DNA from: a phage
Assembly: GCA_024613925.1 (NCBI GenBank)
Contig: GCA_024613925.1_4713.1
Direction: 5' to 3' (one strand)
Length of the DNA: 64,000 nt
This document shows, in pieces, positions 2,216 to 64,000 of this stretch. The position numbers and the translations under genes were made by a program. The notes under the pieces are model-generated. The model had not been told where the DNA came from. It did no database searches and saw only the letters and a program-made list of their open reading frames with translations. The first letter of the stretch is position 1; every line of letters starts with the position of its first letter.

Positions 2216-2263
2216 GTGTTGTCTCCAGTAATGATTCAAAAGATAAACCTGAGCGGCATAGAA

Positions 2264-2295
2264 CCCTCTCCCTTCCCTTACGGGTTGGGAGAGGG
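2264..2295 (-). terminator. GC-rich hairpin CCCTCTCCC..GGGAGAGGG downstream of gene 2318..3655
   Basis: 9-bp stem plus 3-bp extension, loop TTAC; weak U tract; member of repeated hairpin family. Confidence 0.4.
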
Positions 2296-2317
2296 GATAT
2301 ATCAGTTTATTAACTGA

Positions 2318-3655
2318 TTACTGCTGTGCTTTCTTTGCTTCCAGAGCTTCCTTTTTCGCGTAGTATTTCGACTGGATGTGCCCTTTCAGCATTTTAGCAA
2401 CGCCGTCCAGAACAGCGTTACCTGCCTGAACACCGTATTTCATCAGACCGACCTGCGGGTTCACGTAGCAGGAACGTGCGTCTTTCAGTGCAGACAGTAC
2501 AGCTTGAACACGCTGTTTTTCCTGAGCGGAAACATCGCCTTTCTTAGACAGATCGGCTTCCATATCGTCACCGAATTTAACAGCGTCTTTGAAGCCCTGG
2601 GATTTCTTACCGATGGTGCCTTTCAGTGCAATCAGTTTATCAGCCAGTACATCAACGCTGTGAACCGCAGCAGTCAGTTGATTCTGAGACAGAACAGGCG
2701 CTTCAACTTCTTTCGCTTCGCCGGAACGTTCCCAGGTTACTTTACCGTCGTTGGTTTTGAAACCCCAACCAGCCGGGCCAGTAACATCTGCGATCGCCGG
2801 TGCGTTCAGTTTATCAGTGTATTCGGTGTGGGACTTAGATTTGACTAACCCAACGAATTTATCAGCACGATCGTCAGCAGCCTTCATTGCTTTCTCGAAG
2901 GTGTCAGCGATTTTAGTCGCTGCGGTAACCAGATCGTCACCACCGATATAGCCAGAAACGCCGCTACCCAGAGTAACTTTGGCATTTTCAGCAACGCCAA
3001 TACTCTTGCCGATCATTTCTTTCAGTTTAGCAGCACGTGCTTTCAGTTTGGTCGCGCCGTCGAAGATGCGATCCATGAACTTCACGAAGGTTTCCCAGGA
3101 AGTTTTCAGGAAGTTCTTGATGGTTGCCCACAGTTTCTGCCACCATTTTTGTTCTTCCAGGAAGATCATGTTGGTCGCATCGTAACGGGAAGCGGAACCA
3201 CCGAAGCTTTCGAAGGACGGCATGGTTTCCGGCATTTTGAAACCGATAGTACCACACAAACGTTTCAGATTACGCATGTGTTCCTGAGCGGTTTGTGCAG
3301 ACATACCGCCGTCTTTCAGGTAGCTTTCGGTTGCAACAACGGTTTCCGTCAGTTCATCCATGGCTTCATCCATGGCTTCTGCGGTTTCGTCGTCTTTTGC
3401 AATTTCGATAACAACAGCATCAACCTGCTCGATATCACCACGAACTTCGATAGCCAGTTCGGTTTCAGCTGCGGTATCTTCAGCGATTTCAGCACGTTCG
3501 GTCAGTTCAGCCACAACGTTTTCATCCGCTGCTGCAGCATCAGCTGCCGGTTCTGCTTCAACGGTTGCCGCTGCATCCGGATCGATCTCAGCAGCCAGTT
3601 GAACCAGCTGTGCGTTAGATGGATTTGCGACAAGACGATCAAAAATAGAAGGCAT
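2318..3655 (-). CDS. Hypothetical protein with strongly acidic Ala/Glu/Asp-rich N-terminal region (scaffold or internal virion protein candidate)
   Basis: 445-aa ORF; AAAGGAAAC ribosome-binding site before ATG; low-complexity acidic N-terminus then helical-looking sequence. Confidence 0.6.
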   Translation of the reverse strand: MPSIFDRLVANPSNAQLVQLAAEIDPDAAATVEAEPAADAAAADENVVAELTERAEIAEDTAAETELAIEVRGDIEQVDAVVIEIAKDDETAEAMDEAMDELTETVVATESYLKDGGMSAQTAQEHMRNLKRLCGTIGFKMPETMPSFESFGGSASRYDATNMIFLEEQKWWQKLWATIKNFLKTSWETFVKFMDRIFDGATKLKARAAKLKEMIGKSIGVAENAKVTLGSGVSGYIGGDDLVTAATKIADTFEKAMKAADDRADKFVGLVKSKSHTEYTDKLNAPAIADVTGPAGWGFKTNDGKVTWERSGEAKEVEAPVLSQNQLTAAVHSVDVLADKLIALKGTIGKKSQGFKDAVKFGDDMEADLSKKGDVSAQEKQRVQAVLSALKDARSCYVNPQVGLMKYGVQAGNAVLDGVAKMLKGHIQSKYYAKKEALEAKKAQQ

Positions 3656-3719
3656 AATTTGTTTCCTTTACAATAAATTACACATTAGCTAATGCGGCTT
3701 AAGTGAACCGTCAGCTCAC

Positions 3720-4250
3720 TTAAAAGCCCTTAAAACCCGGTGCCATAGGTTGCCCAAACACCGCATTCAAAGTACATATGATGTCCTGGATGCCATTGTC
3801 CCAATGGAGCCAAGTACGCACCATCTCTTCGTCTGACAACGTGATATAACTCATAAGTTTACCGCTGCTTTCCAGACGTTGGTGCGAACTTAACGACTGA
3901 CGATCCGACCAGTTATCAATCAATTGACCCGCAATCTGAACGTTCGTGTCTCGTCTACCCGTGTGAATGAACCGTAGTGTATCACGGATAAACTCCAGAC
4001 TGGTGAAGTTCAGATTTGGGTTATGGCTGTTCATTTCCACCCAATCGGTGATAGGGTACATCAAACGATAAAGGGTAGAAAGAACCTGACGTTCATATTT
4101 CCAGTCATCGAGAGGAGTACCGTCGACCAGACGCTGATACAAACTAACAACGTCGCGATCGTAGTTCTCCTGGCGTTTTACACCGTTAACCGGAAATCCA
4201 AAGAACCCGGTACCGTATAACGTTAAAGGGACGTCACGAAGTGCATTCAT
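3720..4250 (-). CDS. Hypothetical protein
   Basis: 176-aa ORF; 4-bp overlap (ATGA-type coupling) with upstream gene. Confidence 0.5.
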   Translation of the reverse strand: MNALRDVPLTLYGTGFFGFPVNGVKRQENYDRDVVSLYQRLVDGTPLDDWKYERQVLSTLYRLMYPITDWVEMNSHNPNLNFTSLEFIRDTLRFIHTGRRDTNVQIAGQLIDNWSDRQSLSSHQRLESSGKLMSYITLSDEEMVRTWLHWDNGIQDIICTLNAVFGQPMAPGFKGF

Positions 4251-5149
4251 ACAGCTGCCTCTTCTTTTCGTTTAATATCATAACGAAGTTTCTTCAGTCG
4301 CTCTTCGTGATATTCGATCTGCTGCTGGATTTTTGGATCGTTGCCTGCATTCTGTTGCTTTTGCTTCAGTGACAAAATCCAATACTCCAACGCTTGGGCT
4401 TCTTCTTTGGCTGCTTGTAACGACGCTTCTTCACGTTCGCTGCGCCAGATGCGATAACGGTAAATAAGCGTGTTGGTCATTTGAGTGTCGGACCATGAAC
4501 CCATACGCATCGGGTCAGTATTACCTGCGTTGTACAATCCATTACCAACACCGTCTTCATCAGAAACCACAACATCCGGGATTTTATCCAACCCAGCAAG
4601 GATCTGTTGTTTCTGTCCACACAGCACCTCGGTGGCGATGGCGAAACCGTACATGTTGGCGGTCAGGTAAGCAATCTCGTTTTTGGTGAAGAACTCACCA
4701 AGTGCTTTATCACCACCTGGCATGCTTTCGCAGATGACCGTCGCACGAAGCAGCGTACGAGCGTAGCTAACGTAGAAGCCCAGGGACTCAACAAGACGTA
4801 CCAGAGCGGCTTCTTTGAAACTTAGGCCGTCAGCAGCAACATCGATTTCCAGGTTTTTGTTAACACGTTTAACAATTTCTGGAATCAGGTCAACAGCATT
4901 ACGTAGCGCTAAGTGAACGTTTTCTACCCAGCTTCCAGAGCGAACGCGGGTTAAACGCTGGTGAAGATCCTTATCGGCAAGTTTCCATAAGGCGCTTTCA
5001 CCCTTTTGGAGAAGCGAAGCGGATGTCTCGTAGTAAGGAATCGCGGTGTTGTTGATTTCGTCACGGATTGATTCAAGTGCGTCAGCAACACCGGTGCGTT
5101 TAAAAAGCGGCTTCAAACCGCGAATGAATTCTTTAAAATCGATTGCCAT
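4247..5149 (-). CDS. Hypothetical protein, Lys/Glu-rich coiled-coil-like C-terminus
   Basis: 300-aa ORF in minus-strand operon. Confidence 0.55.
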   Translation of the reverse strand: MAIDFKEFIRGLKPLFKRTGVADALESIRDEINNTAIPYYETSASLLQKGESALWKLADKDLHQRLTRVRSGSWVENVHLALRNAVDLIPEIVKRVNKNLEIDVAADGLSFKEAALVRLVESLGFYVSYARTLLRATVICESMPGGDKALGEFFTKNEIAYLTANMYGFAIATEVLCGQKQQILAGLDKIPDVVVSDEDGVGNGLYNAGNTDPMRMGSWSDTQMTNTLIYRYRIWRSEREEASLQAAKEEAQALEYWILSLKQKQQNAGNDPKIQQQIEYHEERLKKLRYDIKRKEEAAV

Positions 5150-5188: not shown

Positions 5189-6295
5189 TTAACGAATCTG
5201 TGGGACGTTTCCGGTACGGAGCGCCTGGAGGATCGTCAGAAGATCGGAACCCGAGGTTGACGAACTGTTGGATTTTTCCAGTTGCTTGAAGCTTACGGTG
5301 GTCCCTTGATCCAAGCTGTGGAAATAGAAGGTCACCATCTCTTCAGCTTCGTCGATGATGATCAACTGCATTGCGAGGGCTTCAGCCATGACTTTCTGAC
5401 GTGTGGTATAGTCAGATAAACGACGTCCGATCTTACGCTCGATGGCTTCCTGGTTAGCCTTAGAGATGATATAGGTGGAGGCGATGGCTCCAGAAGAAGG
5501 GATCTTTGTGCTCGCTGCAGCTTTTGCGGCATTGATGCGCGCAGCATTAACAGCCTTACGGATACCCTCTTTATCCATGCGTGAGATTCGTTTGTGTTCA
5601 CGAACCAGATCGCTAAGCAGGATCATATCGCTCCAGAAAGACAGCTCACCGGCCATCATGCGATGCCAACGTGCTCGCCAGGTGTTCTGTGGACCGCCGA
5701 TCGCTAAAATCGACGCAAGCACTTCCGCTGGTGAACTTGCGATACGCATGCTGATATTCAGCGGCATTTTCATCGTTGCCTGACCATCGGTCAGCGTCAC
5801 GGTTAAGAACTTCCCGGTGACCGCATTCGCATCTTTGTTCAGCAATTCGATCGCCGCGTCGCTGGCTCCAACATCGAGGCTATTTTTTTGTTTCCCCTGC
5901 AGGTTGAATCCTTTGCCGTCAAGGAAAACAAGGCTTTTGCTATCCGCACTTTCCAGCGCTAATTTAATAGCCTTATCCGTCAGGTTAGCGTTACGGTTTG
6001 GATTCACGCGACCCAGCGTTTTATCGACACTGATATTACCCACCTGCATGATGGTGTTCAACGCCAGTAAATAGAACCCGGTATACATGTTTTCAGCGGT
6101 GCGCATGCAGTTGCCTAACGCATTGCGTGCGTCGCTATAATACAACTCACGTTCAAAGATCAGCGGTGCGATAACGCGTGAAGGTTGTGAGAGTTCAACC
6201 AGCGAACCTGGCTGGATAAGTTTATTAACTTCGTAGACTTTAGCGATACCGGACGCAACAACGTTAACAGCGTCGGCAATTTCTGATGCTACCAT
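5189..6295 (-). CDS. Hypothetical structural protein (capsid-related candidate, unverified)
   Basis: 368-aa ORF with AAGGA ribosome-binding site; no diagnostic motif recognised. Confidence 0.5.
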   Translation of the reverse strand: MVASEIADAVNVVASGIAKVYEVNKLIQPGSLVELSQPSRVIAPLIFERELYYSDARNALGNCMRTAENMYTGFYLLALNTIMQVGNISVDKTLGRVNPNRNANLTDKAIKLALESADSKSLVFLDGKGFNLQGKQKNSLDVGASDAAIELLNKDANAVTGKFLTVTLTDGQATMKMPLNISMRIASSPAEVLASILAIGGPQNTWRARWHRMMAGELSFWSDMILLSDLVREHKRISRMDKEGIRKAVNAARINAAKAAASTKIPSSGAIASTYIISKANQEAIERKIGRRLSDYTTRQKVMAEALAMQLIIIDEAEEMVTFYFHSLDQGTTVSFKQLEKSNSSSTSGSDLLTILQALRTGNVPQIR

Positions 6296-6329
6296 ATTGA
6301 AATCCTTATTTACAAATAAAGGAAAGAAA

Positions 6330-7535
6330 ATGTCTAATTACTACGACCAAGCTATTCAAACCATTCAGGAGAATAATGCGTCGTTAACACCCGAAGCTGT
6401 GGAGGCAGCGGGCAATGCGGTGTTATTCACTGATTCGGATTGGGCAATAGCGCGGAAGAATATTCGTACCAGTGTCGGTCAAGGGACATACGAGGACAGT
6501 ATCGCCAGACGGTATCGGAATGTTTCACCTATTCCAGGGAACAGCCCGATTCCGATTAACCGCGATCATGCCGGTATTACCTTCTTCACACGACCTAATT
6601 TACATCTTACCGACGCGAACTTAAAACGAGATCGACGTTTGTGGTCGTTACGCACGGATAACCCTAACAGTATTCAGGCTGTTGTCCGCGACTACTTGGA
6701 CCCTGTGGGTGCCAGAAAGCGGAACCATCGAGGACGTGCCATCGTCGATGAGCGCAATCCATTCATAAGTATACTGACGGACAACCTGACGGATATCAGC
6801 GGTTTCAATGACATGGAAATGCAGGTCTATCAGGGCAAACCGGGATTACGCCAAGAAACCGTTGTGATGGCTGACGGTTCAGTGGATATGTTTCAACCCT
6901 ATAACCTGAACGCGACGTTCAAGAACATCATGGGTAACCCCATCATGTTCCTTCATTATATTTGGTTGATTTACATCGCTGGTGTGCATAATGGCGAACT
7001 GACGCCAAGCCCTCAGGCCATCATCGATAACGAAATGGATTACTGGACAAGATGTTATCGTATCATCTTGGATCCGACTGGGATGTATGTTCGTTATATC
7101 TTCGCACCGACCGCGATGTTTCCTGTCGGGTTACCGATCGGTAATATGGCTAACTACAGCATCGATAAACCCTTCACGCAGGATAACGAACGTATCACTA
7201 TCCCATACCAAGCGGTTGGTAATAACGCATTCGATGAAATTCTGAAGGATGAATTCAATCGACTTGTCTTGATGTTCTATTACGGTGAGAACGATACCCG
7301 TACGTTCCTTGAAGATGAGGAGTTGGTACCTATCTCACCCTACGAACGTCGAATCATGTCGTATCGTGTCGATATGTATCCATTTATTCATCCGTTGACC
7401 TCAGAGCTTCTTTGGTTCGTACCCGCTGATGATTACAACGAATTCTATCTGGATCTTGAGCCGTCGGCGTTACCACCGGATACGTTCAGTCGCGATCTTG
7501 TCCGAACCACCATTCCGCAAAATTACGAGGGATAA
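6330..7535 (+). CDS. Hypothetical protein
   Basis: Track ORF 6297..7535 begins with TTG; ATG at 6330 preceded by AAGGAAAGAAA is the better start. Confidence 0.6.
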   Translation: MSNYYDQAIQTIQENNASLTPEAVEAAGNAVLFTDSDWAIARKNIRTSVGQGTYEDSIARRYRNVSPIPGNSPIPINRDHAGITFFTRPNLHLTDANLKRDRRLWSLRTDNPNSIQAVVRDYLDPVGARKRNHRGRAIVDERNPFISILTDNLTDISGFNDMEMQVYQGKPGLRQETVVMADGSVDMFQPYNLNATFKNIMGNPIMFLHYIWLIYIAGVHNGELTPSPQAIIDNEMDYWTRCYRIILDPTGMYVRYIFAPTAMFPVGLPIGNMANYSIDKPFTQDNERITIPYQAVGNNAFDEILKDEFNRLVLMFYYGENDTRTFLEDEELVPISPYERRIMSYRVDMYPFIHPLTSELLWFVPADDYNEFYLDLEPSALPPDTFSRDLVRTTIPQNYEG

Positions 7536-17538: not shown

Positions 17539-18858
17539 TTACGCGACGACAGAGTCGAGTTTCGCTGACACTTTGAACAGATCGTTGTTGATAACCGTAG
17601 ACAGTGTTTTCTGAACCTGCTCCTGCTTCACGGCTTGATGAACGTCAGGACGCAATGCGATGGTAATGAGCTCCATAATGGTACGATTATCGTTGAGAGT
17701 TTTCAAGATCTTGTCGATTTCCTTTATTGCGTCTAATGTCGATACGCGGATATCCTGAGGCAAATCGCGATCTTTAAGACGCCCAACCAACTCTTGTTTT
17801 AATTTCGCAACACGATCCTTATCACTGGTATACGTGGAATAGGTGAAGTCATACTGCGTTATTGTTTTCAGGTTGACGAAAAGAGCCACCGTGCCCATTG
17901 TACCCAGGAATGGGTTAATTAACGATAAACCGGCGATTGCACTAATAACTGACAATGAACATATGGCATATTGCGCCCAAACACTAACGCGATCCCTTAC
18001 TGATATTCTTCCGAAGTGTTTATACATCTTCGCTAGTGTGTCTGCCATTGCAGCCCCACCACCATGACGGGTGACGAATTGATCAGCAGCAAATTCCGCT
18101 GAGGTATCAGAATACCGTCCGGTATGCGTTGCGACACGTGCCTGTTCTTCTTTATTGCTTATATACACGGTATACCAAGTGGCAACATCGCTTGATTCCG
18201 CAATGGCGTTGACATCAACCGTTGTGCCCATCGCATCGTTTAATGATTTCGCGAGAGTGATCTTTTTCTCTTTATCCGTTGTTTGCAGTAGTTCGCGTGC
18301 GACGGTTGCGAGAGAAAAATCGGTCTTAGCGGATTCGGCGATAAATTCCAGGAAAGTAAAAGCATGCCCAACCTCGTGCATGATAAGCGCTGCTTTGTTT
18401 TCTGGAATAAATTCCGTGGTACGAATAAATCCGTCGGTTACTAATACACGGATAGTGATTTTCTCGAATGCGCCTTTCACCCTACCGTTGACAAGATCGA
18501 CCACACCGACGACTTCGTCGATGTTTTTGCTTAACTGTTTAAAGTCGCTGTTTCGGTAGAACTGTTTACGCCATTCCTCAATAAGCACGTTGTTTTTTGT
18601 AATATCCGGAGTAATACAGAAACAGTTAACTTCACTCATGTTCGGTATTACTTCTGTCTGGATAGTCAACCCAGTGTATTTGCGTATTAAATCGGTTAAT
18701 ATTTTACCACCGATATATTTTACCTTTTCCTCATAGCTGGTAAGATTATCCATTGTTTTGAAGAACTCGGTCATTTCCTTGAACATGGAACCATCTTGAA
18801 ACTTGATGGCCTCCATCGTTAATTCGTCATGACCATACACGCGTTGTAGTAATGACAT
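17539..18858 (-). CDS. Putative Zn-metallopeptidase (HEXXH) with hydrophobic C-terminal segment
   Basis: ALIMHEVGHAF contains HEXXH; hydrophobic stretch WAQYAICSLSVISAIAGLSLINPFLGTMGTVALFV. Confidence 0.55.
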   Translation of the reverse strand: MSLLQRVYGHDELTMEAIKFQDGSMFKEMTEFFKTMDNLTSYEEKVKYIGGKILTDLIRKYTGLTIQTEVIPNMSEVNCFCITPDITKNNVLIEEWRKQFYRNSDFKQLSKNIDEVVGVVDLVNGRVKGAFEKITIRVLVTDGFIRTTEFIPENKAALIMHEVGHAFTFLEFIAESAKTDFSLATVARELLQTTDKEKKITLAKSLNDAMGTTVDVNAIAESSDVATWYTVYISNKEEQARVATHTGRYSDTSAEFAADQFVTRHGGGAAMADTLAKMYKHFGRISVRDRVSVWAQYAICSLSVISAIAGLSLINPFLGTMGTVALFVNLKTITQYDFTYSTYTSDKDRVAKLKQELVGRLKDRDLPQDIRVSTLDAIKEIDKILKTLNDNRTIMELITIALRPDVHQAVKQEQVQKTLSTVINNDLFKVSAKLDSVVA

Positions 18859-19080
18859 ATTACACTCTCTAAATTCACGTAAATTTAAGGGTTAATGGAT
18901 CGGCTGGCCGCACCAATCACAATGTGTTCGTTGCTATGCAACGGCATTCATAGAAATACCTTTTGACGGTAACATCACCTTTCACACCCCAAGCGATAAG
19001 AGTGGTCGGTTAAAAACAACAGAACGTGGGGATGATATAGAAAATCACCTTTTTAACACTTATTACGAGTTTATCAAGCC

Positions 19081-20580
19081 ATGAGCGAACAAGAACGAAA
19101 ACCTAAGAAGAAACTGCTCGGTATTCAATGTCGACACATCAGCTATAACGAAGCGAACGATGGCAGCAAGAACGACCTCATGATCGCAAAAGAGATCATG
19201 TTCTTTGATGATAATACGCAAGCGACGAACCTTCGCTTCTTCGAGAATTACAAACGTCCGTTTTGGGTGACGGTAGAGAGTAAACGCAAGAACAAATATA
19301 AAAAGGAAAGCGAGAAGCTATCGCATGTGCGTCGCTACGATGTCCGTCAAAGTGAACTGGTTGAAAAGATCAGTTCGGTGCTTTATAAAAGACGTGCTGA
19401 TGATAACACCCGTTTACAACAGCTTGCACGGAGTCCCTACCTCTATGGCACGGACGTTAGCGCCAGCTGTTATTTAAAAACCCAATACAATACAAAATGG
19501 CCGGAATACGTCGATAAATTACCTGCTTCCATTGCCTGTTTCGATATCGAAACCGACGTTGTCCACGGGCACGGTAAGATCGTCTGTATGTCTATTACAA
19601 TGGGATACAATGCGATACTTTGCTATACCAAGGACTTCGTTGGTCATATTCCGAATGCGATTGAGAAAACCCATGAGAAGATTCGATATTACCTGGCCGA
19701 ACGTCTGAACACCAAAGAAGATCCGCACGCATTTGAAAAATACCAATACGATGTTCGAATCGTAGAAAGTCCAGCACAAGCGGTCATCCAATGCATGCAG
19801 AAGGTTCACGAATGGCAACCGGATTATCTCCTTGGCTGGAATATCGCGTTCGATATTCCGCGTATGCTCCAGGCACTGAACGAGGAAGGGTATCGTCCCG
19901 AGGATGTTTTCTCCGATCCTCGTGTACCACCTAAATACCGTATTGCTCGCTGGGTGCCACCGAAGACCGACAAGGTATCTGCTTCAGGTCGTAAAACCAA
20001 CCTTACCCTTGAGCAAACCTGGCCGATGTTTTATACGATGGCCACGTATCAGGTTATGGATGCGATGTGTGGTTATAAGTTCGTTCGTTTAGGAAGACCG
20101 GATGAGGGACGCTATTCACTCGATGCGGTATTAGAGCGAAATAAATGCCATACGAAATTAAAAGCAATTCCTGGTACAGAAGGGTTCACAGAGCTCGCCT
20201 GGCACGAAGAGATGCAAACGAACCATCAAATCGACTACGGCGTATATAACCTTTGGGATAACCAAGGCATCGAGGCGTTGGACCAGAAAACAAAAGACTA
20301 TTCGATGACCATCCCTATTCGTTTGGCGGCGTCGGATTTGAAAGATTTCAGTTCTAACCCTAAACGTATCTGCGATAAACTTTTCTTCGTTTATCTTAAC
20401 CGTGGGGAAGTCATGGGATGCACCGCCGACGATATGACTCAGGAAGAAGATAAGTGGGTTATCTCACGAACCGGACATATCGTCACATTACCATGCGATC
20501 TCATGGCGGACAACGGCATTCATCTCTTCTGGGATATGCCGAACCTGAGAAGTTATATTCGATTATTTGTTGCGGATTAA
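19081..20580 (+). CDS. Family-B (T4 gp43-like) DNA polymerase N-terminal plus 3'-5' exonuclease fragment
   Basis: Exo I CFDIETD, Exo II GWNIAFDIP (cf. T4 GWNIEGFDVPYI), Exo III block NHQIDYGVYNLWD (cf. T4 NHQRYISYNIIDV); GHIVTLP then FWD at residue 485 resembles the pre-motif-A region; ORF stops before any fingers, motif B/C or thumb. Confidence 0.7.
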   Translation: MSEQERKPKKKLLGIQCRHISYNEANDGSKNDLMIAKEIMFFDDNTQATNLRFFENYKRPFWVTVESKRKNKYKKESEKLSHVRRYDVRQSELVEKISSVLYKRRADDNTRLQQLARSPYLYGTDVSASCYLKTQYNTKWPEYVDKLPASIACFDIETDVVHGHGKIVCMSITMGYNAILCYTKDFVGHIPNAIEKTHEKIRYYLAERLNTKEDPHAFEKYQYDVRIVESPAQAVIQCMQKVHEWQPDYLLGWNIAFDIPRMLQALNEEGYRPEDVFSDPRVPPKYRIARWVPPKTDKVSASGRKTNLTLEQTWPMFYTMATYQVMDAMCGYKFVRLGRPDEGRYSLDAVLERNKCHTKLKAIPGTEGFTELAWHEEMQTNHQIDYGVYNLWDNQGIEALDQKTKDYSMTIPIRLAASDLKDFSSNPKRICDKLFFVYLNRGEVMGCTADDMTQEEDKWVISRTGHIVTLPCDLMADNGIHLFWDMPNLRSYIRLFVAD

Positions 20581-20648
20581 GAAATAAATCGGTTAAGTAT
20601 TACTACTCTGTTCGATGGTTATGGGATAACCAAATGGAGTAGTCATGC

Positions 20649-21755
20649 ATGAATAAATGGTATTTACCAGAGGCACGTTTTAAATACTACGCAACTGACG
20701 ATGGTCTTTTCCATTCAACTGGAGAGGCTGTTCCGGTTACCGTTAAAGATGGTATCTCGTATGTCGAGATCGACTGGTATCGTGGTCTAGGTCTATATGA
20801 CGCCGGACTCGCTGTTATGTGTGCGTTGAGAGCGATAAACATACCAATCTACTTACTTGATCAAGCATATTCTCTTTACATTGACGGGAATCCTGAGAAT
20901 GTAAAACGTGAGAACCTGCTTTACCGTTTCAAAGGCGGTAGGTTGGAAGTACCTGGATGTCCCGGCTATTATTTCATCCCCTTCCATTCTCGTTATGCTA
21001 TTAACGAGGAAGGTTTGGTGATCAATGTCGAGACGGGGTTCGAAAAACGCTGGTCGCAAATGAAACCTAACAAGAAACAAAAGACCCATGGCGGTTACGT
21101 TTACCAACGTACGGTAAATGATAACGGATTCACATCCCAGCTTTATCAGCATCGTGCTATGGGTTACGTGTTTCTTGAATACGGTGCCGACGTTATGGAT
21201 AAGACAATAAACCATAAGAACGGCATCAAATGGGATAATCGTCCATGTAACATTGAGTGGGCAACGTATACGGACAATAATAAGCATGCGGTTGATAGCG
21301 GTCTTCGTACAGAAGGATTGCATCCTGTTAAGGTTAAGGATTACAACACCGGTGAAGTCAGGGTATTCCCTTCAATCGCTGCGTGTTGTGCTGCTTATCC
21401 ATGCTTGGAACGTAAACGTGTTTGGTATTGGATGACGCGTAAAACGAAATTCATGCCAGCCTGCAATCTGTATTTCAAAGAAGTTGACGATGATACCCCA
21501 TGGCCAGATTGGCAGATCGGACAGCCTCGTCGTCTTCAAGAATATACGATGCCTAACCCTATCGCAGCTATCGATAAACAAACTGGTAAACGTTATGTGT
21601 TTGCATCAATTGCTCACGCACAACGAGAGACAGGTGTTTCTAACGTGACTATCATGAAGTACTGTCGTAATAGGCTTACAGAAGGTCGTTCTCCATTCAT
21701 CTTCCGCTATTTTGAAGATGTTAGTTCGATGCCTGTAGGCCTTAACGACGCTTAA
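20649..21755 (+). CDS. HNH homing endonuclease (HNH_3 type)
   Basis: INHKNGIKWDNRPCNIEWATYTDNNKH matches the H-N-(DNR)-N-H signature; C-terminal G.RVFPSIA / GKRYVFASIAHA repeats resemble intron-encoded nuclease DNA-binding modules. Confidence 0.8.
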   Translation: MNKWYLPEARFKYYATDDGLFHSTGEAVPVTVKDGISYVEIDWYRGLGLYDAGLAVMCALRAINIPIYLLDQAYSLYIDGNPENVKRENLLYRFKGGRLEVPGCPGYYFIPFHSRYAINEEGLVINVETGFEKRWSQMKPNKKQKTHGGYVYQRTVNDNGFTSQLYQHRAMGYVFLEYGADVMDKTINHKNGIKWDNRPCNIEWATYTDNNKHAVDSGLRTEGLHPVKVKDYNTGEVRVFPSIAACCAAYPCLERKRVWYWMTRKTKFMPACNLYFKEVDDDTPWPDWQIGQPRRLQEYTMPNPIAAIDKQTGKRYVFASIAHAQRETGVSNVTIMKYCRNRLTEGRSPFIFRYFEDVSSMPVGLNDA

Positions 21756-21789
21756 CCGATTTTAGGTCCCGGTGGGGATAACGCCCCCA

Positions 21790-22114
21790 CCGGATTCCCG
21801 TTAATTGCTGGAACCCCCTAAAGCCTTTCGACCACAGCGGATTCTGAAAAGAAAAACGTCAAGGTTAGAAAACAGAAAGGATGTTCGTAAGGAAACGATA
21901 AATGGGCAATCAGCAGCGAAGCTTCTAAGGGCCTGCATTAGCAATAAGACCTAAGAAGAACGTTCAACGACTATCCGGTCGCGCGGAGTAAGGGACAAGC
22001 GTCCCCAAACACGGGAGGGGTGCGAAAGCATTCCATGATATAGTCTGCTCCTAAGTGAAAGCTTAGGCGGGTGGTACACACCGGCATAAGAGTTGCGTCT
22101 TATGTGGACAATGG
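21790..22114 (+). ncRNA. Group I intron-like ribozyme core
   Basis: Q-like AATCAGCAGC (21908-21917), R-like GTTCAACGACTA (21962-21973) and S-like GATATAGTC (22037-22045) in the canonical order; P7 GACTA/TAGTC pairing; P9-like hairpins CCTAAG..CTTAGG and CATAAGA..TCTTATG. Confidence 0.5.
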
Positions 22115-22369
22115 CTTGACATTTCTTCAAGTTATCCCAACGGGCAGATACTGCTCAATCTATCCAGAGCATGTGTTTTTCGTGAGCTCTCGCGCATTGA
22201 GGGCGTCTCTGACTATCAATTCAGGAAGTTAGGTATCAACTTTATTACCGGAGGTAAAACGAACGCTGTAGACTTCTGTAGAATCGTTTATAAAGCGCCA
22301 TCGATGTTTGAACTCTTAGAACATTTCGATGCGACGCGTCCAAAAGAGGAAGCGCGGACCATCGAATGA
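22115..22369 (+). CDS. Putative 3' exon (start-less ORF) of the interrupted polymerase gene
   Basis: Frame with no stop from 22067 to TGA at 22367-22369 and no start codon; translation ..QWLDISSSYPNGQILLNLSR.. contains a motif-A-like DxxSxYP; a terminator hairpin follows. Confidence 0.3.
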   Translation, partial: LDISSSYPNGQILLNLSRACVFRELSRIEGVSDYQFRKLGINFITGGKTNAVDFCRIVYKAPSMFELLEHFDATRPKEEARTIE

Positions 22370-22417
22370 TTCAAGTAAGTTGATCCTCGTTTAACAAAAA
22401 AGAAAACGCATGCGAAG

Positions 22418-22449
22418 CCCCTCCCCCTGGCGGAAGCCGGAGGGAGGGG
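22418..22449. terminator. GC-rich hairpin between convergent transcription units
   Basis: CCCCTCCC..GGGAGGGG stem followed by TTT; lies between the putative 3' exon and minus gene 22456..22941. Confidence 0.4.
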
Positions 22450-22455
22450 TGGGGT

Positions 22456-22941
22456 TTATGCGTGTTCGTTGCCAACCTTCACTTTGTAATCAGCGTCGGT
22501 TAAGAAAATAGACAGGAATCCATGTTCTTTGCAAATCTGACTAAGGATGTCAGCAATGATTTCGTTGATCATCGGTTTGTTTGCAAGGGCATAGATGTAC
22601 CCGGGTGTAAAAGAAAGTGCATGATTGATCATAGGCTCATGAGAAGCCAAGATAAGGATCACGTGATGCTTCCCATCGTCGGTAACGACCGCTTGCGTAG
22701 ACACGAAGAAATCAGTGAAGCAGCAGCGATCACAGGCTTTAGGTATATACAAATCACCCAGAGCTTCGTCGCGTGCTTTTATGTGTGTTTCAGGGGTGAT
22801 GCTGCTAAGTTGATCTTCAGCGAGATCCAAGACATCCTCAATCGTTTTAAGAATAGCGTTGCGGAAATCCTCGCGGTAGAATGGGATGATATCACGATCG
22901 TTCATGTAATCGCCGGATTCGATAGTAAAGTTGATGTTCAT
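22456..22941 (-). CDS. Small hypothetical protein (array member 1)
   Basis: 161-aa ORF with AGGAG ribosome-binding site. Confidence 0.5.
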   Translation of the reverse strand: MNINFTIESGDYMNDRDIIPFYREDFRNAILKTIEDVLDLAEDQLSSITPETHIKARDEALGDLYIPKACDRCCFTDFFVSTQAVVTDDGKHHVILILASHEPMINHALSFTPGYIYALANKPMINEIIADILSQICKEHGFLSIFLTDADYKVKVGNEHA

Positions 22942-23011
22942 TGAATGCTCCTAGTGGTTATGTCGATTGATTGATGTATTGATTTATGTTTGAAGGTGTT
23001 GTTCACCTTCG

Positions 23012-23479
23012 TTAGATATCATCATCCGTGGTGCCGTAGGACATATGCTGAATTAATTTTCTCGGCTCGATGAAAATACGACATGTGATAAACACATCGG
23101 GATCGTATTGCTCCACGCAACGTCCGAAGGCTTGTTTTGCGGCTTGACGCACCGATGTTATTTCCTGATCGTTCATCGCATTATCGAATTCGATGTTGAT
23201 CGTGATTTTATCGGGAAATAAATAGATAAAGTAATCGCCACTGATACCACCATCATCAAAGTGACGTTCATTGTAACACTGGACGAGCTTACCTTCACGT
23301 TCTTTCTGATACCATCCAAGGATACTATTAAGACCTCTGTCCACGCATTCGAATGCTTGAGTAATAACATCCTCAACGACGGAGGCTGCCGTGGGACCAT
23401 TGAATAGACGATCTAAGCGCTTTTTCATCGATTTGTCGGTTTTCATGTTCATTGTTTCTTTTCCTGTTATAGTCAACAT
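23012..23479 (-). CDS. Small hypothetical protein (array member 2)
   Basis: 155-aa ORF. Confidence 0.5.
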   Translation of the reverse strand: MLTITGKETMNMKTDKSMKKRLDRLFNGPTAASVVEDVITQAFECVDRGLNSILGWYQKEREGKLVQCYNERHFDDGGISGDYFIYLFPDKITINIEFDNAMNDQEITSVRQAAKQAFGRCVEQYDPDVFITCRIFIEPRKLIQHMSYGTTDDDI

Positions 23480-23529
23480 ATAGCCCTTCCCCGGCCTTGA
23501 CGGCTAGGGAAGGGTATGTTTACGTGTAA

Positions 23530-23925
23530 TTACTCTTTGACGTCAGTTGTCGTTTCGACATGCTTCTCACTACTGACGTACCAGAGCAGGTACGTTGGGA
23601 AAAGATTGACCTCTAAGCTAAATGGGATATTGTATTTCTCTTCCATTTTACAGAGATGTTCTTTAAGTAAATTTCTCGCGTCTCTGTCACCACGAACAGA
23701 GTGCCAGTCTAGTTCTTTGTTCTCCTTTACCAGGACCTCTACGATGATACGTTGCTCGTGAACCTCGGTTTTCACAGTGAAAAGTAAATCGCTGCTATCA
23801 AAACGGGTAAAACGAATGTATGAGCCAGGTGTTTTTTCTTGTTTAATAATATCGATCATGGTAGAAATGCGCGGATGATCGATGTTGTCGTTAACAGCTT
23901 TAACGATGGATTCTACAATGCTCAT
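23530..23925 (-). CDS. Small hypothetical protein (array member 3)
   Basis: 131-aa ORF. Confidence 0.5.
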   Translation of the reverse strand: MSIVESIVKAVNDNIDHPRISTMIDIIKQEKTPGSYIRFTRFDSSDLLFTVKTEVHEQRIIVEVLVKENKELDWHSVRGDRDARNLLKEHLCKMEEKYNIPFSLEVNLFPTYLLWYVSSEKHVETTTDVKE

Positions 23926-24084
23926 TTTTTTTATCCTTAATGTTATCGGTTTAGAAATATTACTTAAATATTGTTTTATTTATCGATGGTTGTTACCCAT
24001 GATGGGAAAGCCGGATGGAAACAGAGCGTGAACGTAACCTTCGTATCGTATTTAATCGCTGAACTTTATCTTTGATAGACATGA

Positions 24085-24543
24085 TTACCCCTTAGCTCCT
24101 TCTTCGTCTGGAGAGTATTCCATCGTGTAGAATTCATAACCATCGGAAAACTTGAGTGTTAATGTAATAGGGAAATCGCACGGCATAGCTGATTTCGTAA
24201 ATGCGTTATTAGCAACATCAGCCAACCGACGTATAGCATCAACCCCGCTGACGCTGAATGGTAGTTGTATGTTGATAAGGATACGATGCTTGTAAACATA
24301 GAAAACAACGGTACTGTCGAGATAAACGCTATGGAACGGTATTGTTGGGATGCGTTCCACAATGGTAAAATACGTCCCGTCATTATCGCTATGCCCCATC
24401 GACCAAATATCGGATTTGCGTAGATTTTGTTTGAGGGATTCGATACTTCGAGTGACGGTCTCAGCAACAGGCGTGACGTAAGTGTCTCTATGCGAGTCGA
24501 AAAGTTCGTTGACGTTAGATTCGAATGAATACATTGTTGCCAT
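24085..24543 (-). CDS. Small hypothetical protein (array member 4)
   Basis: 152-aa ORF, GAGG ribosome-binding site. Confidence 0.5.
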   Translation of the reverse strand: MATMYSFESNVNELFDSHRDTYVTPVAETVTRSIESLKQNLRKSDIWSMGHSDNDGTYFTIVERIPTIPFHSVYLDSTVVFYVYKHRILINIQLPFSVSGVDAIRRLADVANNAFTKSAMPCDFPITLTLKFSDGYEFYTMEYSPDEEGAKG

Positions 24544-24609
24544 TTTCTACCTCAATAGTTTAACCGGCACGTGTCCCCACCTAACAAGGGACACGATATC
24601 GTTGATTAA

Positions 24610-25110
24610 TTACTCTTCTGTGTTTTCATTGTCAGGATCGTAGTGGAATTCGAACAGCCCTGAACCGTCGTGTCCGTTGATTGTTAGTATAACGGGCATA
24701 TCGAATCCTCGGACGCGCGAATGAAAACACTGTGCTAATTTGAGTTTGGCGTATGCCACTATTTCATTGACGGCAATGCACGACTCACCTGTTATACTCA
24801 GTATAACGTCGATACTAACAATGTTGTCGTGCAACGCAAAACGCCAACGATCGATACGAGTATTATCTTTAGCGGTTGTCTCGTTTACGAGATAGACTTT
24901 ATCATCAACCGACAAAGCGGGACTCCAGCAACGTTCGTTTATTAAATTCGCCTGGAGTTTTAGTATCGTCTGATCGATAATATCCCAACACGTAACCAGC
25001 GTGACGTCAGGCACTGAGTAGAGAAGGGCGAGCACTTTATCCTTTATTTTAGGTGTCTCTGCAGGACGTCCGCAAATACCATGCATTTCAACTTTCTTAT
25101 TCATATTCAC
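24610..25110 (-). CDS. Small hypothetical protein (array member 5)
   Basis: 166-aa ORF. Confidence 0.5.
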   Translation of the reverse strand: MNMNKKVEMHGICGRPAETPKIKDKVLALLYSVPDVTLVTCWDIIDQTILKLQANLINERCWSPALSVDDKVYLVNETTAKDNTRIDRWRFALHDNIVSIDVILSITGESCIAVNEIVAYAKLKLAQCFHSRVRGFDMPVILTINGHDGSGLFEFHYDPDNENTEE

Positions 25111-38641: not shown

Positions 38642-39226
38642 TTACACAGTTGTAGGAAATTCCGGCCAATCGATATTTGGTGCTGTTGATGTGTCAACGC
38701 GATGCAGAGCCACCCGATACTTTTTCCATGCCGTCAACATGGACACCTCTTCTTCCGTTGCGATCTCCAGATCCACAGCATCCTGAAGTGGCGTAATATG
38801 ATCATTCGCCGCCTTCATCAGACTGTTTTTTGTTTCTTCCGCCTCCCGGATCCGGAACAGTTTTTCTGCTTCCGTATCCTTCACCCAGGCTGTGCCGTCC
38901 CACTTCTGAAACTCCCCTTCCGGCGATAACCAGGTAACATTTTCCGGTAACGGACCGAGTTCAGAAATAAATAACGCGTCGCCGGAAGCCACGTCATAAA
39001 CCGTTTTACCCCGATGATCTTCAACGAGATGCCACGATTCATTTTCATTGTTAAAAACTGCCACAAAACCAGCAGGAATTTCCGGTGGGGCGATATCTGT
39101 AGAATTAGCTGGCAGACCTGTATGAGGCGGAATATATGCATCACCTTCACCAATAAATTCATTAGTTCCGGCCAGCAGATTATAAATTTTTATGGTCCGT
39201 GGTTGTTCACTCATTCTGAATGCCAT
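38642..39226 (-). CDS. tfa: Tail fibre assembly protein (lambda Tfa family)
   Basis: [39 protein letters not shown]... matches the lambda/E. coli prophage Tfa chaperone as recalled from memory; directly follows the fibre gene with start/stop overlap. Confidence 0.85.
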
Positions 39227-42200
39227 TATGCAAGCCTCACGATGTAGTTAAATGCAATGTTTTTGACGGTGTTTTCCGCGTTACCCGTAGCGTTAACGGT
39301 GATGGTGTGTCCATGTGATCCAATCGCAACCGAGTGCGTATGCGCACCAATACCTACAGTATGTGCATGTGCGCCAGAACTTGCTGCAGTACCAGACAGC
39401 GAGTGGGTATGTGCTCCATCTGATGATGTCTTCCCTGATATACGGGTCATACCTGAGCCACCTTCCAGTGGTACAATTGGTGCTTTGACTGAAACCTGGG
39501 TATAACCGTTAGGAAAGAGTGCACCATTATTAGAATTCGTATATGGTCCAGAACTCCGGTGTTGGTGCCCACCTGCACTATTTGCAGTCCCGCTCACACT
39601 GTGTGTATGTGCCCCGGTGTTATTCGTGGATTTAGTGCCGTAATCAAACGACGATGTGGTTTTCGTCCCCAAATCCGTATTGGATGCGCTGGCGCTATGG
39701 TTGTGCGATTTTATGCCGTCCTGTTCCTGAGACAATACGGCACGACCACTGGCAGGTTTGCCCTTAATCGTCCAGCCACGCATATCAGGAATAACGCCTG
39801 ACGGATAAGCCACTGCAAGTTTCGGGTATACAGATTTGTCAAAAGTCTGCCCTTGCATCAGAGCATAACCAGACGGAACGGTATCTGAAGGCCATGGAAT
39901 AGGCGCGCCAACAGGCAACTCCGGAGGTGCGGTAAACTCACCCAACTCCTTTATTGCCTCAATAAGTAGAGCTATTTGGGCAGAGATAGAGACCGTTAAA
40001 ACGTCCTCACCATTAGCGTCTTTATAAGTAGAAACTGCTTCAGGTAACACTTTTTGTAAGGTTTGTGCTACAACGCCAACCTCACGATGAACATTAGTGG
40101 ATTTAAAGTTCTCCTTTTTGTCGTATATTAAACCTGACAATTTCTTTACCTTCTCCAATGCATTAGTTATTGGAGAGAAATTACTTTTCAGCCGGGCGTC
40201 TGATCGTGTATAAACTTCGTTAAAGTTACCGTTCCCATCACAATCTATATTTCCAGTAACGTTGAGAGGTACATAGCTTTGAACAGCCTCTCTCGTAAAG
40301 CGTAAAACGTGGTCATAATCGGCGTAAACATCTAGAACGCCGTCCCCGTTCTGCTTAAAGCCGGTGTCATCATCCCCTAAAGCTATGGAGTTCTCACCTA
40401 AATGATTCTCGGTTCCAATACCCAGATTATCGCTTAAAATACTATCAATAGCAAATATTGAATGAGAACAATAAAACCCTCGTCCATTGTTAAAATCCAA
40501 AATGGTTTGTGCGTTCGTGCTTTCTGTCGCGGGATTAGTTGCTCCCCACTTATAGGTTGTTTGACCGACGGTATAATTCTTGGTCGGAACACTAACCGAT
40601 AACCCTTCTTCGGCAAAAACTTGAATAGGGAAAGCCCTACCTTCGACGTAAAAAACGCTGCACACATCATCATCTTCCGCACCTGTTACAATGGAATGGA
40701 TTGCGCGCTCATCAGTATCATATATCGAAAAATACCCTGCTGCGTATGAACCACGATCAGTCCAACCGCCCGGCATTACCGTTCCATTGAATTCGCAGTT
40801 ATTCATTGCATAATCACCACTGGCAGATGTGGTTGTAATAACCACTCTGGAAGCCAGTTCGCCAGTGCTACCAGTGGAACGCCGGAAAATAACTGGATAC
40901 CACTTTCCGCCAACGGCTTTAGACGGCGCGTTAAATACGTACTGCCGCATTCCTTTTTTCTTATCCACCTCGTCTTTGCTGTAAACATTAATGTTACTCA
41001 GGAAGCGACCCTTATCAGGAATATCTGCGCCGTTAGAACTGCGTTGCATAGCGCCCGCAGCTTTATCAACAGTGGTTTTCAAACCCAGGAAGTTAATGAT
41101 ATCGGCCGTCGACCCTTTCGCTAACAAATCACGCGCAGTCGAGGTGAAATCCGCTAACCCTACCTGATTACTACCGGTAAAATAAGGGAGTTTATTCGCT
41201 TCTGTTGTTAGGTTAGACCACGCCGTGAGCAGCGCGTTCAAAGGTTGTTTACCCGCCAACGTATTGGTTATTGTCGTTGCGAAATTAGGATCGTTCCCTA
41301 AAGCTTGAGCCAGCTCATTAAGCGTATTTAGCGCTTCTGGAGACGAGTCGATCAGTGATGCGATAGCACGCATCACAAATTCCGTGTTGGCAATCTGTCG
41401 ACTGCTATCGTTCTCTGCAGCCGTAGGCGCTGCCGGGATACCGGTGAACACAGGGCTATTAAGATCTGCCTTGAGAGCGATGAGACGTTTAAGTGCGTCG
41501 ACATCGACTTTCAGGTTTTCCCATCCGATGAGAGAACCACCACTGCTGGCATGGTAACGGTTGTACCAGAAGTCACCGTTAACGCCTAAAAAGAATATTC
41601 CCTTCTCTTCGTTTTGTGGGCCGGAACTATTTCGTGACGAGCTGATGTAATTGATTTCAATGAGGCCGTTAAACGTCACTCCCGGGATGATTTTGTTGTC
41701 TCCAGCCGACTGTGATACCTGGTAAATCCCCGGGGTTGCGGCTTTGACCCATGTTAAGAATTCTGTTACTCCAGCGGTACCGCTGAAATTCTTAACGTCG
41801 GTAAGTATTGCCCCATAACCGAACATACCGGGTAGAGCCACTCGTCCGTTGGTGCGGTCACGAATATCTGTTGCAACAACAGGCAATTGTTTACGAACGG
41901 CATTAACCGCTTTAGGCGTGGCCGATTTTGTCTCGTCGTCGCTATCGGTTTCATTACTTAGAATAGTTAAACCGCGCGTAGCAGTCGTTGCATCAGGAAG
42001 AAATGCGTTATCCAACACCTTAAGCTGTATTGCACTCGTATTACTAACAACGACATGCACCTGACAGTTAAGAACGCTGGTTGCGCCTTCGGTAGGCGTA
42101 GGCTTATATCTTTCTGGCGCACTGCAGACGGCAATCAGAACACCTTGGTCATCATACAAACCGATCTCACGTACCCAGAACCCACCTTGACCAGCAGGAA

Positions 42201-42438
42201 TAATACCCTCAACGATAATCCTGGTTGTGCTGTCACCATCCGCATGGATATTAGAAACTTCCCCACGATAAACTTCGTGAACAAGCGCTGTTTGGCTGGC
42301 GTTCGGGGTTGGGATCGAGCCGTTACCATCACCAACGGCAAAGTGTGTGATTTTTAGTTTCTCACCGTCGGGAAGTAACGCAGCGGTGATACGTTCTGCT
42401 CCTTTATCGGTAACTACCGTTATATATGCTGTACTCAT
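39226..42438 (-). CDS. Tail fibre protein, mosaic: P2 gpH-like N-terminus and lambda Stf-like His-x-His C-terminal tip
   Basis: N-terminus ..[20 protein letters not shown].. and collar motif [26 protein letters not shown]; C-terminus [53 protein letters not shown]. Confidence 0.85.
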
Positions 42439-44882: not shown

Positions 44883-44922
44883 AAGCACTCCAAAGTTCAT
44901 GGGGCGGTAACCGCCCCGTTGG

Positions 44923-61535: not shown

Positions 61536-64000
<2,465 letters not shown>

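Follow-up and report, generated by a model that had tools for sequence, protein, structure and literature searches.

The window analysed here, a stretch of 64,000 nucleotides (nt) of phage DNA from contig GCA_024613925.1_4713.1, carries a DNA polymerase gene interrupted by a group I ribozyme and an HNH homing endonuclease gene. The interruption, at positions 20578–22114, is very probably a functional self-splicing group I intron that restores the reading frame of the polymerase. The phage is related to Escherichia phage Goslar, one of the nucleus-forming jumbo phages (Chimalliviridae), and positions 19081–22455 were aligned to Goslar with about 96% identity in two blocks that covered only 55% of the length. 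The intron is a previously unannotated case of a known class of element, and the class itself is not surprising. The distinctive features are the presence of two variants at one site, an architecture with the endonuclease gene in the loop of helix P1 together with a relative lacking an open reading frame (ORF), and a recoded empty allele. The literature searched did not describe any intron at this site in the DNA polymerase genes of Goslar, PhiPA3 or other chimalliviruses, although few subscription journals were covered and absence is not proof.

The ribozyme was identified with the Rfam covariance model RF00028, which matched positions 21742–22067 of the plus strand over the full length of the model with a score of 73.4 bits (gathering score 50, E 9.5e-17). 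No further group I intron was detected in the 64-kb window at E < 0.1. The initial annotation, which had been read from the sequence, proposed a polymerase-exonuclease ORF (19081–20580) followed by an HNH ORF and then by a group I core, for which it suggested this covariance model as a check. Both ORFs were present, and the Q-like (AATCAGCAGC, 21908–21917), R-like (GTTCAACGACTA, 21962–21973) and S-like (GATATAGTC, 22037–22045) elements and the P7 pairing GACTA/TAGTC were located in the sequence, with their helices confirmed by the fold. The region following the HNH ORF, given there as about 650 base pairs (bp), was about 700 bp long and was composed of 359 nt of ribozyme, 255 nt of the second exon and 86 nt of 3′ flank.

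The splice junctions were set by protein alignment to intron-less homologues and by comparison with a near-identical intron-less allele (L010). When the tail of the 499-codon ORF 19081–20580 was joined to the downstream frame and searched by tblastn, the exon peptides were contiguous in 263–270 of 286–291 phage records, all from phiKZ-like jumbo phages. The intron-less homologues 201phi2-1 gp144, RSF1 ORF189 and PA7 gp298 gave the consensus h-x-A-D-L-D-[IV]-x-S-x-Y-P-N. Only one possible junction yielded ADLD; therefore, the 5′ exon ended at U20577 and the 3′ exon started at C22115. The junctions were thus U20577/U20578 (GAT/TAA) and G22114/C22115, where the slash marks the splice site, and the joined exons read ...GCGGAT/CTTGAC.... 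The nucleotide homology to Goslar ended at 20580 and restarted at 22114. The conceptual spliced product of 583 amino acids (aa), ...FVAD/LDISSSYPNG..., was aligned without gaps to 60 homologues. The L010 allele, on a 237-kb ENA contig with the same gene neighbourhood, was an uninterrupted gene of 1752 nt with 95.7% nucleotide identity. Its product (P0001), found by protein search, was contiguous over 583 aa and essentially identical to the conceptual spliced protein. Therefore, the junction was fixed by a natural intron-less allele.

The intron length of 1537 nt corresponds to 3n+1, and the reading frame therefore moves from frame 1 to frame 2. The exon frame carried 19 stops across the intron, and the endonuclease gene was located in another frame. 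The sole in-frame start codon of the 3′ exon was ATG 22304, with no earlier start or ribosome-binding site. With an in-frame UAA as the first intron codon and no separate start for the 84-codon 3′ exon, the full protein could not be made from unspliced pre-mRNA. The initial annotation had taken the frame 22067–22366 as the downstream exon and WLDISSSYPNG as a motif-A-like sequence. The exon itself stood, from 22115 onward, whereas positions 22067–22114 were intronic (P9.1, P9.2 and the terminal G), so that the start had been placed 48 nt early. Likewise, LDISSSYPNG was the motif-A segment, and the preceding Trp was not part of the protein. The exons of the window and Goslar differed at 63 of 1752 nt and at only 1 of 583 residues, and the 11 differences in the 255 nt of the 3′ exon were all synonymous. 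The 3′ exon is, as judged from these substitutions, under strong purifying selection despite lacking its own start. The coordinates of all features are collected in Table 1.

Table 1. Predicted intron, exons and ribozyme elements, with counterparts in related phages. Positions are those of the window unless an accession is given; a slash marks a splice site.
Feature	Position	Strand	Description
5′ exon	19081–20577	+	Codons 1–499 of DNA polymerase N-terminal/exonuclease subunit, end ...RLFVAD (GAT); 96.5% nt identity to Goslar gp068
Predicted group I intron	20578–22114	+	1537 nt; first codon in-frame UAA (20578–20580), last base G22114
3′ exon	22115–22369	+	Codons 500–583 (LDISSSYPNG...EEARTIE) and stop; holds motif A (D501, Y506, P507)
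Terminal guanosine (omega-G)	22114	+	3′ splice site follows
Junction-spanning peptide of spliced protein			FVADLDISSSYPNGQ
Junction peptide of spliced protein, second form			...LFVADLDISSSYPNGQILLNLSR
P1 5′ strand	20574–20578	+	GGAU/U; 5′ splice site after U20577; pairs with 21765–21769
Internal guide sequence, P1 3′ strand	21765–21769	+	GGUCC; kept in the otherwise unalignable Goslar intron
P1-extension 5′ strand	20586–20597	+	AAAUCGGUUAAG; perfect 12-bp complement to 21751–21762
P1-extension 3′ strand	21751–21762	+	Closes loop containing the whole endonuclease gene
Shine-Dalgarno-like GGAG	20636–20639	+	9 nt before endonuclease ATG; read from sequence
Homing endonuclease gene	20649–21755	+	368 aa; HNH_3 catalytic motif around H189, C-terminal NUMOD1; in P1 loop
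P2 hairpin	21770–21792	+	8 bp
P3 5′ strand	21795–21801	+	7/7 pairs with 22011–22017
P3 3′ strand	22011–22017	+	Domain fold
P4-P5-P6 domain	21805–21961	+	Rfam alignment and domain fold; P element AAUUGCUGG, Q element AAUCAGCAGC
P4	21806–21811 with 21910–21915	+	
P5 extension, long	21812–21909	+	
P6	21916–21961	+	
R element GUUCAACGACUA	21962–21973	+	P7 5′ strand 21969–21973 (GACUA)
P7.1 hairpin	21974–21987	+	Between P7 and P3′
P7.2 hairpin	21992–22005	+	Between P7 and P3′
P8 hairpin	22018–22033	+	GAAA loop
S element GAUAUAGUC	22037–22045	+	P7 3′ strand 22041–22045
P9	22050–22067	+	GAAA loop
P9.1	22070–22082	+	
P9.2	22084–22105	+	
GC-rich hairpin	22417–22449	.	−44 kcal/mol, z −3.8; between convergent polymerase gene and ORF 22456–22941 (−)
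Goslar intron	NC_048170 (L001) 5498–7259		RF00028 44.7 bits, below gathering score, E 7e-9; unannotated
Goslar 3′ exon	NC_048170 (L001) 7260–7514		84 codons; unannotated; gp068 annotated as 499-aa DNA polymerase
PhiPA3 intron	NC_028999 (L006) 3657–4000		344 nt, ORF-less, RF00028 71.7 bits; in DNA polymerase gene gp085; unannotated
PhiPA3 3′ exon	NC_028999 (L006) 4001–4236		Unannotated; junction ADLD/IVSTYPN
HPP-Temi intron	PP968062 (L005) 3428–5149		1722 nt with HNH gene in DNA polymerase gene, RF00028 59.2 bits

The 5′ splice site was contained in a long-range P1 helix of 5 bp with a U20577·G21766 wobble pair, and the same pairing was formed in Goslar. The first helix of the Rfam alignment (21746–21771) was rejected as P1; it contained several non-canonical pairs, and the compact P1 of PhiPA3 together with the Goslar intron pointed to the long-range helix. 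A local guide candidate, GUUCG at 20610–20614 upstream of the endonuclease ORF, was also dropped, as GGUCC at 21765–21769 was kept in Goslar and adjoined P2 as in PhiPA3. Two hairpins, P7.1 and P7.2, were located between P7 and P3′, an arrangement that marks subgroup IA in the classification of Michel and Westhof. By this criterion, not by a subgroup-specific model, the intron appeared to be IA-like.

The helices were also supported by comparison among introns, for which P1, its extension, P2, P3, P4 and, at the level of sequence, P7 were used. The P7 pairing GACUA/UAGUC of the window was replaced by GACCA/UGGUC in Goslar, a compensatory change from U-A to C-G. P2, P3 and the loop-closing helix kept their pairing through different sequences across the introns of the window, Goslar, PhiPA3 and HPP-Temi, a comparison comprising only three independent intron types and no statistical test. 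The base at position −1 was T in 6/6 introns examined and C in the intron-less allele. The terminal G also ended the introns of Goslar, L007, L009, PhiPA3 and HPP-Temi, where L007 and L009 are two further Goslar-like genomes.

The sequence evidence for the family of the host gene was weak. The match to Pfam DNA_pol_B_exo1 was 16.4 bits, below the cut-off of 23, and a PDB sequence search with a four-sequence polymerase profile gave nothing useful; therefore, the family could be assigned only with structure prediction, Foldseek and hhalign. With 60 homologues as input, an AlphaFold model reached a predicted local distance difference test (pLDDT) score of 86 and a predicted template modelling (pTM) score of 0.80. 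The model matched RB69/T4 gp43, E. coli Pol II and Pol epsilon with E values of about 1e-12 over about 450–460 columns in Foldseek, and hhalign against T4-like gp43 gave a probability of 97.3% (E 1.9e-11). By the modelled structure, the host gene is a divergent family B DNA polymerase consisting of the N-terminal/exonuclease part and the first palm segment, in line with the family named in the initial annotation. The Exo I, II and III residues D155/E157, N254/D258 and Y389/D393 (DxE, NxxxFD, YxxxD) were invariant in the 60 homologues, as were D499, D501, Y506 and P507.

The hhalign alignment paired VADLDISSSYPNG with VMSFDLTSLYPSI, with VAD-LDISSSYPNG...LNLS placed on VMS-FDLTSLYPSI...VNIS. 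Therefore, D501 was assigned as the catalytic Asp of motif A, and the intron was located between D499 and L500, two codons upstream, which agreed with the earlier proposal of an insertion at the polymerase active site. The protein and all of its homologues ended about 80 aa after motif A, and the short 3′ exon was therefore the natural gene end and not a truncation. This polypeptide had neither motifs B and C nor fingers and thumb, and motifs B and C must come from another protein.

The earlier assignment of an HNH homing endonuclease inside the intron held, with HNH_3 and NUMOD1 domains and the motif NHKNG...N...NNKH. The Pfam scores were 30.5 bits for HNH_3 (cut-off 24.8, residues 186–211), 24.5 bits for NUMOD1 (cut-off 22.8) and 18.8 bits for I-HmuI_NUMOD-like, the last below its cut-off of 27. 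The motif NHKNGIK..D....N.EW.TY..NN.HA was kept in all four Goslar-like copies, the ORFs of which were intact, and the stop codon of the endonuclease was located inside the loop-closing helix. The protein showed 43% aa identity to Goslar gp069 and 24–30% identity to phiKZ ORF179 and to the endonucleases of PA7, PhiPA3 (two places) and HPP-Temi. That the endonuclease is now active in homing or competition is proposed with moderate confidence, slightly above an even chance, and the evidence for cleavage near the insertion site and for homing is indirect, from variation in the population.

Four Goslar-like genomes carried an intron at exactly the same codon, and the introns were of two types. The window and L007 (an IMG/VR contig) had one type, with ribozymes about 99% identical, and Goslar and L009 had the other, with a length of 1762 nt. 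The two types could not be aligned by blastn except for the P7 region and one weak stretch (73% over about 80 nt), although the exons of Goslar and the window were about 96% identical. The Goslar intron retained the GGUCC guide and formed an 8-bp closing helix of unrelated sequence. The endonuclease of L007 was 90–97% identical to that of the window in the C-terminal half and only 15–68% identical in the N-terminal half, so that the endonuclease gene is a mosaic (L007 4350–4900 versus window 20649–21200), which suggests a domain swap within the gene.

A second insertion site, ADLD/I, was found 6 nt downstream of the Goslar-type site in PhiPA3 and HPP-Temi. In PhiPA3, P1 was a compact hairpin (GGAU/UAA-AUA-UUAGUCC). 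The HPP-Temi ribozyme was nearly the same as that of PhiPA3, with the endonuclease gene in the P1 loop and a 7-bp closing helix, and its exon pieces were annotated as two separate 'DNA polymerase' coding sequences. The HPP-Temi relatives PS119XW and phiHQ had an uninterrupted gene; therefore, the intron is polymorphic in that genus too. In the 90% protein cluster, the interrupted form of 499 aa was listed for about 213 contigs and the uninterrupted form of 583 aa for about 101; most of these contigs were 230–260 kb long and came from E. coli, Salmonella and Shigella assemblies. Of 120 metagenomic homologue clusters listed, 18 had their C terminus at ...AD or ...DLD, or a few residues further on, which suggests that both motif-A sites are widely occupied in uncultured chimallivirus-like relatives.

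Several further observations were made on these relatives. Three of the metagenomic homologue clusters read ...DLDV and a few residues more, which could mark a third site or read-through. The exact 499-aa product of the window was present on 139 contigs among the listed cluster members. Many isolate assemblies at NCBI under the labels E. coli, Salmonella enterica and Shigella sonnei also contained Goslar-like contigs of 230–260 kb, a hint that this jumbo phage group is often carried by, or contaminates, clinical and surveillance isolates.

The exon sequence around the insertion site showed a footprint. When the window was compared with Goslar, 12 of the 63 exon mismatches were located within −37 to +27, all of them synonymous, and this was the densest 64-nt stretch of the gene (scan-statistic P about 6e-5). 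The first three codons of the 3′ exon followed the intron type, with CTT GAC ATT in the window type and CTC GAT ATA in the Goslar type, and codons farther from the site were mosaic, including TCT/AGC serine switches. The −24 to −1 tract of all four intron-carrying alleles was TAT ATT CGA TTA TTT GTT GCG GAT (AGA for CGA in L009). The empty allele had TAT ATC CGT CTA TTC GTT GCA GAC, with 6 of 24 nt different, all synonymously, and with C at −1, a position at which U is needed for a group I 5′ splice site. From −45 to +48, the empty allele departed from the window at 23 of 93 nt, compared with 53 of 1659 nt elsewhere. The footprint fits co-conversion during homing, selection on the endonuclease target, or both, without distinguishing between them, and ordinary recombination is also possible.

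Together with the match to the ribozyme model, the analysis established the exact junctions, the family of the host gene, the position of the motif, and the presence/absence and variant polymorphism in relatives, and the following mechanism is proposed. The ribozyme would fold through P1, formed by exon GGAU and the first intron U with GGUCC (21765–21769), and through a canonical P3–P9 core. An external guanosine would attack after U20577, and the exons would be ligated after G22114, so that the motif-A segment is restored in the 583-aa product. The endonuclease would be translated from its own ribosome-binding site in the P1 loop and, as I-HmuI-type enzymes suggest by analogy, would nick or cut the DNA of co-infecting relatives near the insertion site where that site is empty or holds a different intron. 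The lesion would be repaired with the intron-carrying genome as template, and the intron and some flanking exon would be copied in the process, which amounts to homing with co-conversion.

A more tentative extension, which is possible but on the whole doubtful, is that the two variants, the mosaic endonuclease of L007 and the synonymous recoding of about 60 nt reflect an ongoing contest among co-infecting Goslar-like phages. Each endonuclease would attack the polymerase active-site codons of rivals, which may be intron-less or carry the other variant, as with I-HmuI and I-HmuII, and the recoded empty allele would be a cleavage-resistant escape form.

Several points weigh against the self-splicing intron or against parts of the mechanism. 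Splicing itself, together with the activity and target of the endonuclease and the history of homing, was inferred from sequence alone. No convincing P10 pairing of the 3′ exon with the guide sequence was found by eye, and no complement to CUUGAC adjoined the guide. P10 is weak or absent in many natural introns and is hence not strictly defining. P5 was weak, with 3 bp only, and the adopted P1 was taken from comparison with other introns and not from the Rfam model. A PDB sequence search with the endonuclease alone gave no solved relative. In the polymerase, the structure model was unreliable at residues 496–521 (pLDDT < 50), and the equivalence to motif A therefore rests on profile alignment and conservation. 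The partner supplying motifs B and C, fingers and thumb was looked for in ten large ORFs of the window, none of which showed a Pfam polymerase domain. One candidate for this partner is the homologue of PhiPA3 gp47, a protein that PMC11077065 calls a putative DNA polymerase. Finally, the next densest 64-nt stretch of the gene contained 8 mismatches, and the mismatch cluster at the insertion site has other possible causes.

The alternative that survives best, although it is rather unlikely, is that the intron splices but is a vertically inherited passenger, with the endonuclease inactive or its target lost and the variation at the site produced by ordinary recombination. The flanking codons were mosaic in all four intron-carrying alleles and in the empty allele, as general recombination would give, and the second stretch of 8 mismatches per 64 nt and an endonuclease activity predicted only from the gene sequence point the same way. 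However, the endonuclease ORFs were intact and the HNH motif was kept in all four Goslar-like phages, and the intron was polymorphic in presence and type among near-identical phages. In addition, the densest mismatch cluster of the gene fell exactly on the insertion site, the first three codons of the 3′ exon followed the intron type, and the −24 to −1 tract was common to the intron-carrying alleles (with the one Arg codon change in L009) and different in the empty allele.

It is very improbable that the gene is permanently split, with a free-standing HNH gene and a decayed ribozyme between two independently expressed polymerase fragments and no RNA splicing. Some T4-like phages do have gene 43 split into separately expressed parts. 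In the reference annotations, the pieces appear as separate genes or the second exon is unannotated, and in this phage group the polymerase consists of at least two polypeptides anyway. However, the second exon had no start codon or ribosome-binding site before ATG 22304 and was nevertheless conserved at the protein level. The ribozyme had every core helix intact, scored clearly above the Rfam threshold and was about 99% conserved in L007 while half of the adjoining endonuclease gene had diverged; U at −1 and the terminal G were kept in 6/6 introns. Inteins are common in family B polymerase motifs, and a similar gene arrangement in phage MIJ3 was read as a split intein (PMC6892783). An intein or other protein-level splicing element with a nested endonuclease is practically excluded here, as the insert opened with an in-frame stop, carried 19 stops in the exon frame, had the endonuclease in a different frame and contained a group I ribozyme. 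The reading frames therefore refute the intein and leave the unspliced split gene very unlikely.

The self-splicing intron was compared with known systems. Work by Goodrich-Blair and Shub in 1994 and 1996 and by Landthaler and colleagues in 2004 reportedly describes DNA polymerase introns of SPO1 and SP82 with the HNH nicking endonucleases I-HmuI and I-HmuII. As in the window, a group I intron with an HNH/NUMOD-type endonuclease is located in a phage DNA polymerase gene, and close phages have highly divergent ORFs at the same intron site, with signs of exclusion or co-conversion of flanking markers. The SPO1 DNA polymerase belongs to family A, whereas the host gene of the window is a divergent family B member. 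The window also differs in that the ribozymes of the variants could not be aligned either, the ORF is in the P1 loop, the host phage replicates in a protein nucleus and the system is known as sequence alone. The td, nrdB and nrdD (sunY) introns of T4 belong to subgroup IA2, with ORFs in P6 or P9 loops that encode GIY-YIG or other enzymes. These introns share with the window the P7.1 and P7.2 hairpins, an early stop past the 5′ splice site, a looped-out endonuclease ORF and host genes of DNA metabolism. Unlike them, the window has an HNH gene in the P1 loop.

Introns with related HNH genes are known from chimallivirus RNA polymerase genes. The HNH endonuclease gp210, encoded by such a group I intron in the virion RNA polymerase gene of PhiPA3, nicks phiKZ gp178 and causes interference competition (Birkholz et al. 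2024, PMC11620839). It resembles the system in the window in its family, Chimalliviridae, in its endonuclease superfamily and in the position of the intron at conserved codons of an essential polymerase gene. However, the window concerns a DNA and not an RNA polymerase gene, in a phage of E. coli/Salmonella and not of Pseudomonas, and nuclear import, nicking and competition may be proposed for it only by analogy. HNH nicking endonucleases in group I introns of DNA polymerase genes were also reported for Bastille (I-BasI) and the Bastillevirinae (PMC11878797) and for the cyanophage Pf-WMP3 (I-PfoP3I, PMC3428280), polymerase genes being the most frequent intron hosts. Those phages belong to other lineages with other polymerase families, and the reports were not on chimalliviruses or this site.

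The initial annotation had also noted a terminator hairpin after the polymerase frame. The strong GC-rich hairpin at 22417–22449 was real, with an A-run upstream and a short U-run downstream, and it is probably a bidirectional terminator, although a simple terminator scan gave no flag. The scan of 18800–22600 for sigma-70 promoters and terminators yielded nothing above shuffled expectation; because these phages use their own RNA polymerases, it was of little weight. A paralogue array at 22456–25110 (−) was considered and rejected, as only one weak pair was found, consisting of neighbouring ORFs of about 150–166 aa in 24085–25110 (−) with 21% identity (E 1.6e-5). The block 22456–23500 was more divergent among relatives than the flanking genes (85–88% identity or unaligned when compared with L010).

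Elsewhere in the window, an Rfam 'IS009' match at 38685–38883 (−), with 163 bits and E 1.4e-38, was wholly contained in a 194-aa ORF (38642–39226, −). From its sequence, this ORF was read as a putative tail-fibre assembly protein, and it was located directly downstream of a 1070-aa ORF (39226–42438, −) read as a putative tail fibre. The match probably represents coding-sequence homology and not a small RNA gene, and the Rfam family was perhaps derived from a prophage remnant. Other genes, at 61849–63918 (−), 43128–44957 (−), 899–3655 (−) and 6297–7535 (+), comprised an NAD-dependent DNA ligase with the full domain set, a DUF285/DUF7941 protein, two phiKZ-type internal head proteins and a tail tube protein.

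Goslar serves as a main model for nucleus-forming phages in E. coli, and in its reference annotation the polymerase subunit is truncated to 499 aa, with the intron and the 3′ exon missed. The corrected annotation gives a predicted replication protein of 583 aa with the motif-A segment, which bears on proteomics, structural work and knock-down design. This one phage group also has two variants of the intron, an endonuclease that is mosaic, a relative without the ORF and an empty allele that is recoded, and together these could serve as a natural test set for homing, co-conversion and possible interference competition. T4 introns reportedly need translation of the pre-mRNA for efficient splicing in vivo, according to the title of one paper, and the finding raises the question of where and how a group I intron splices when transcription is walled off from ribosomes. 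If the contest among co-infecting phages were true, the intron would be a second, independent 'weaponised intron' after PhiPA3 gp210, now with DNA polymerase as its target and E. coli, a genetically tractable system, as host, and it would require import of the endonuclease into the phage nucleus and splicing of the intron in a ribosome-free compartment.

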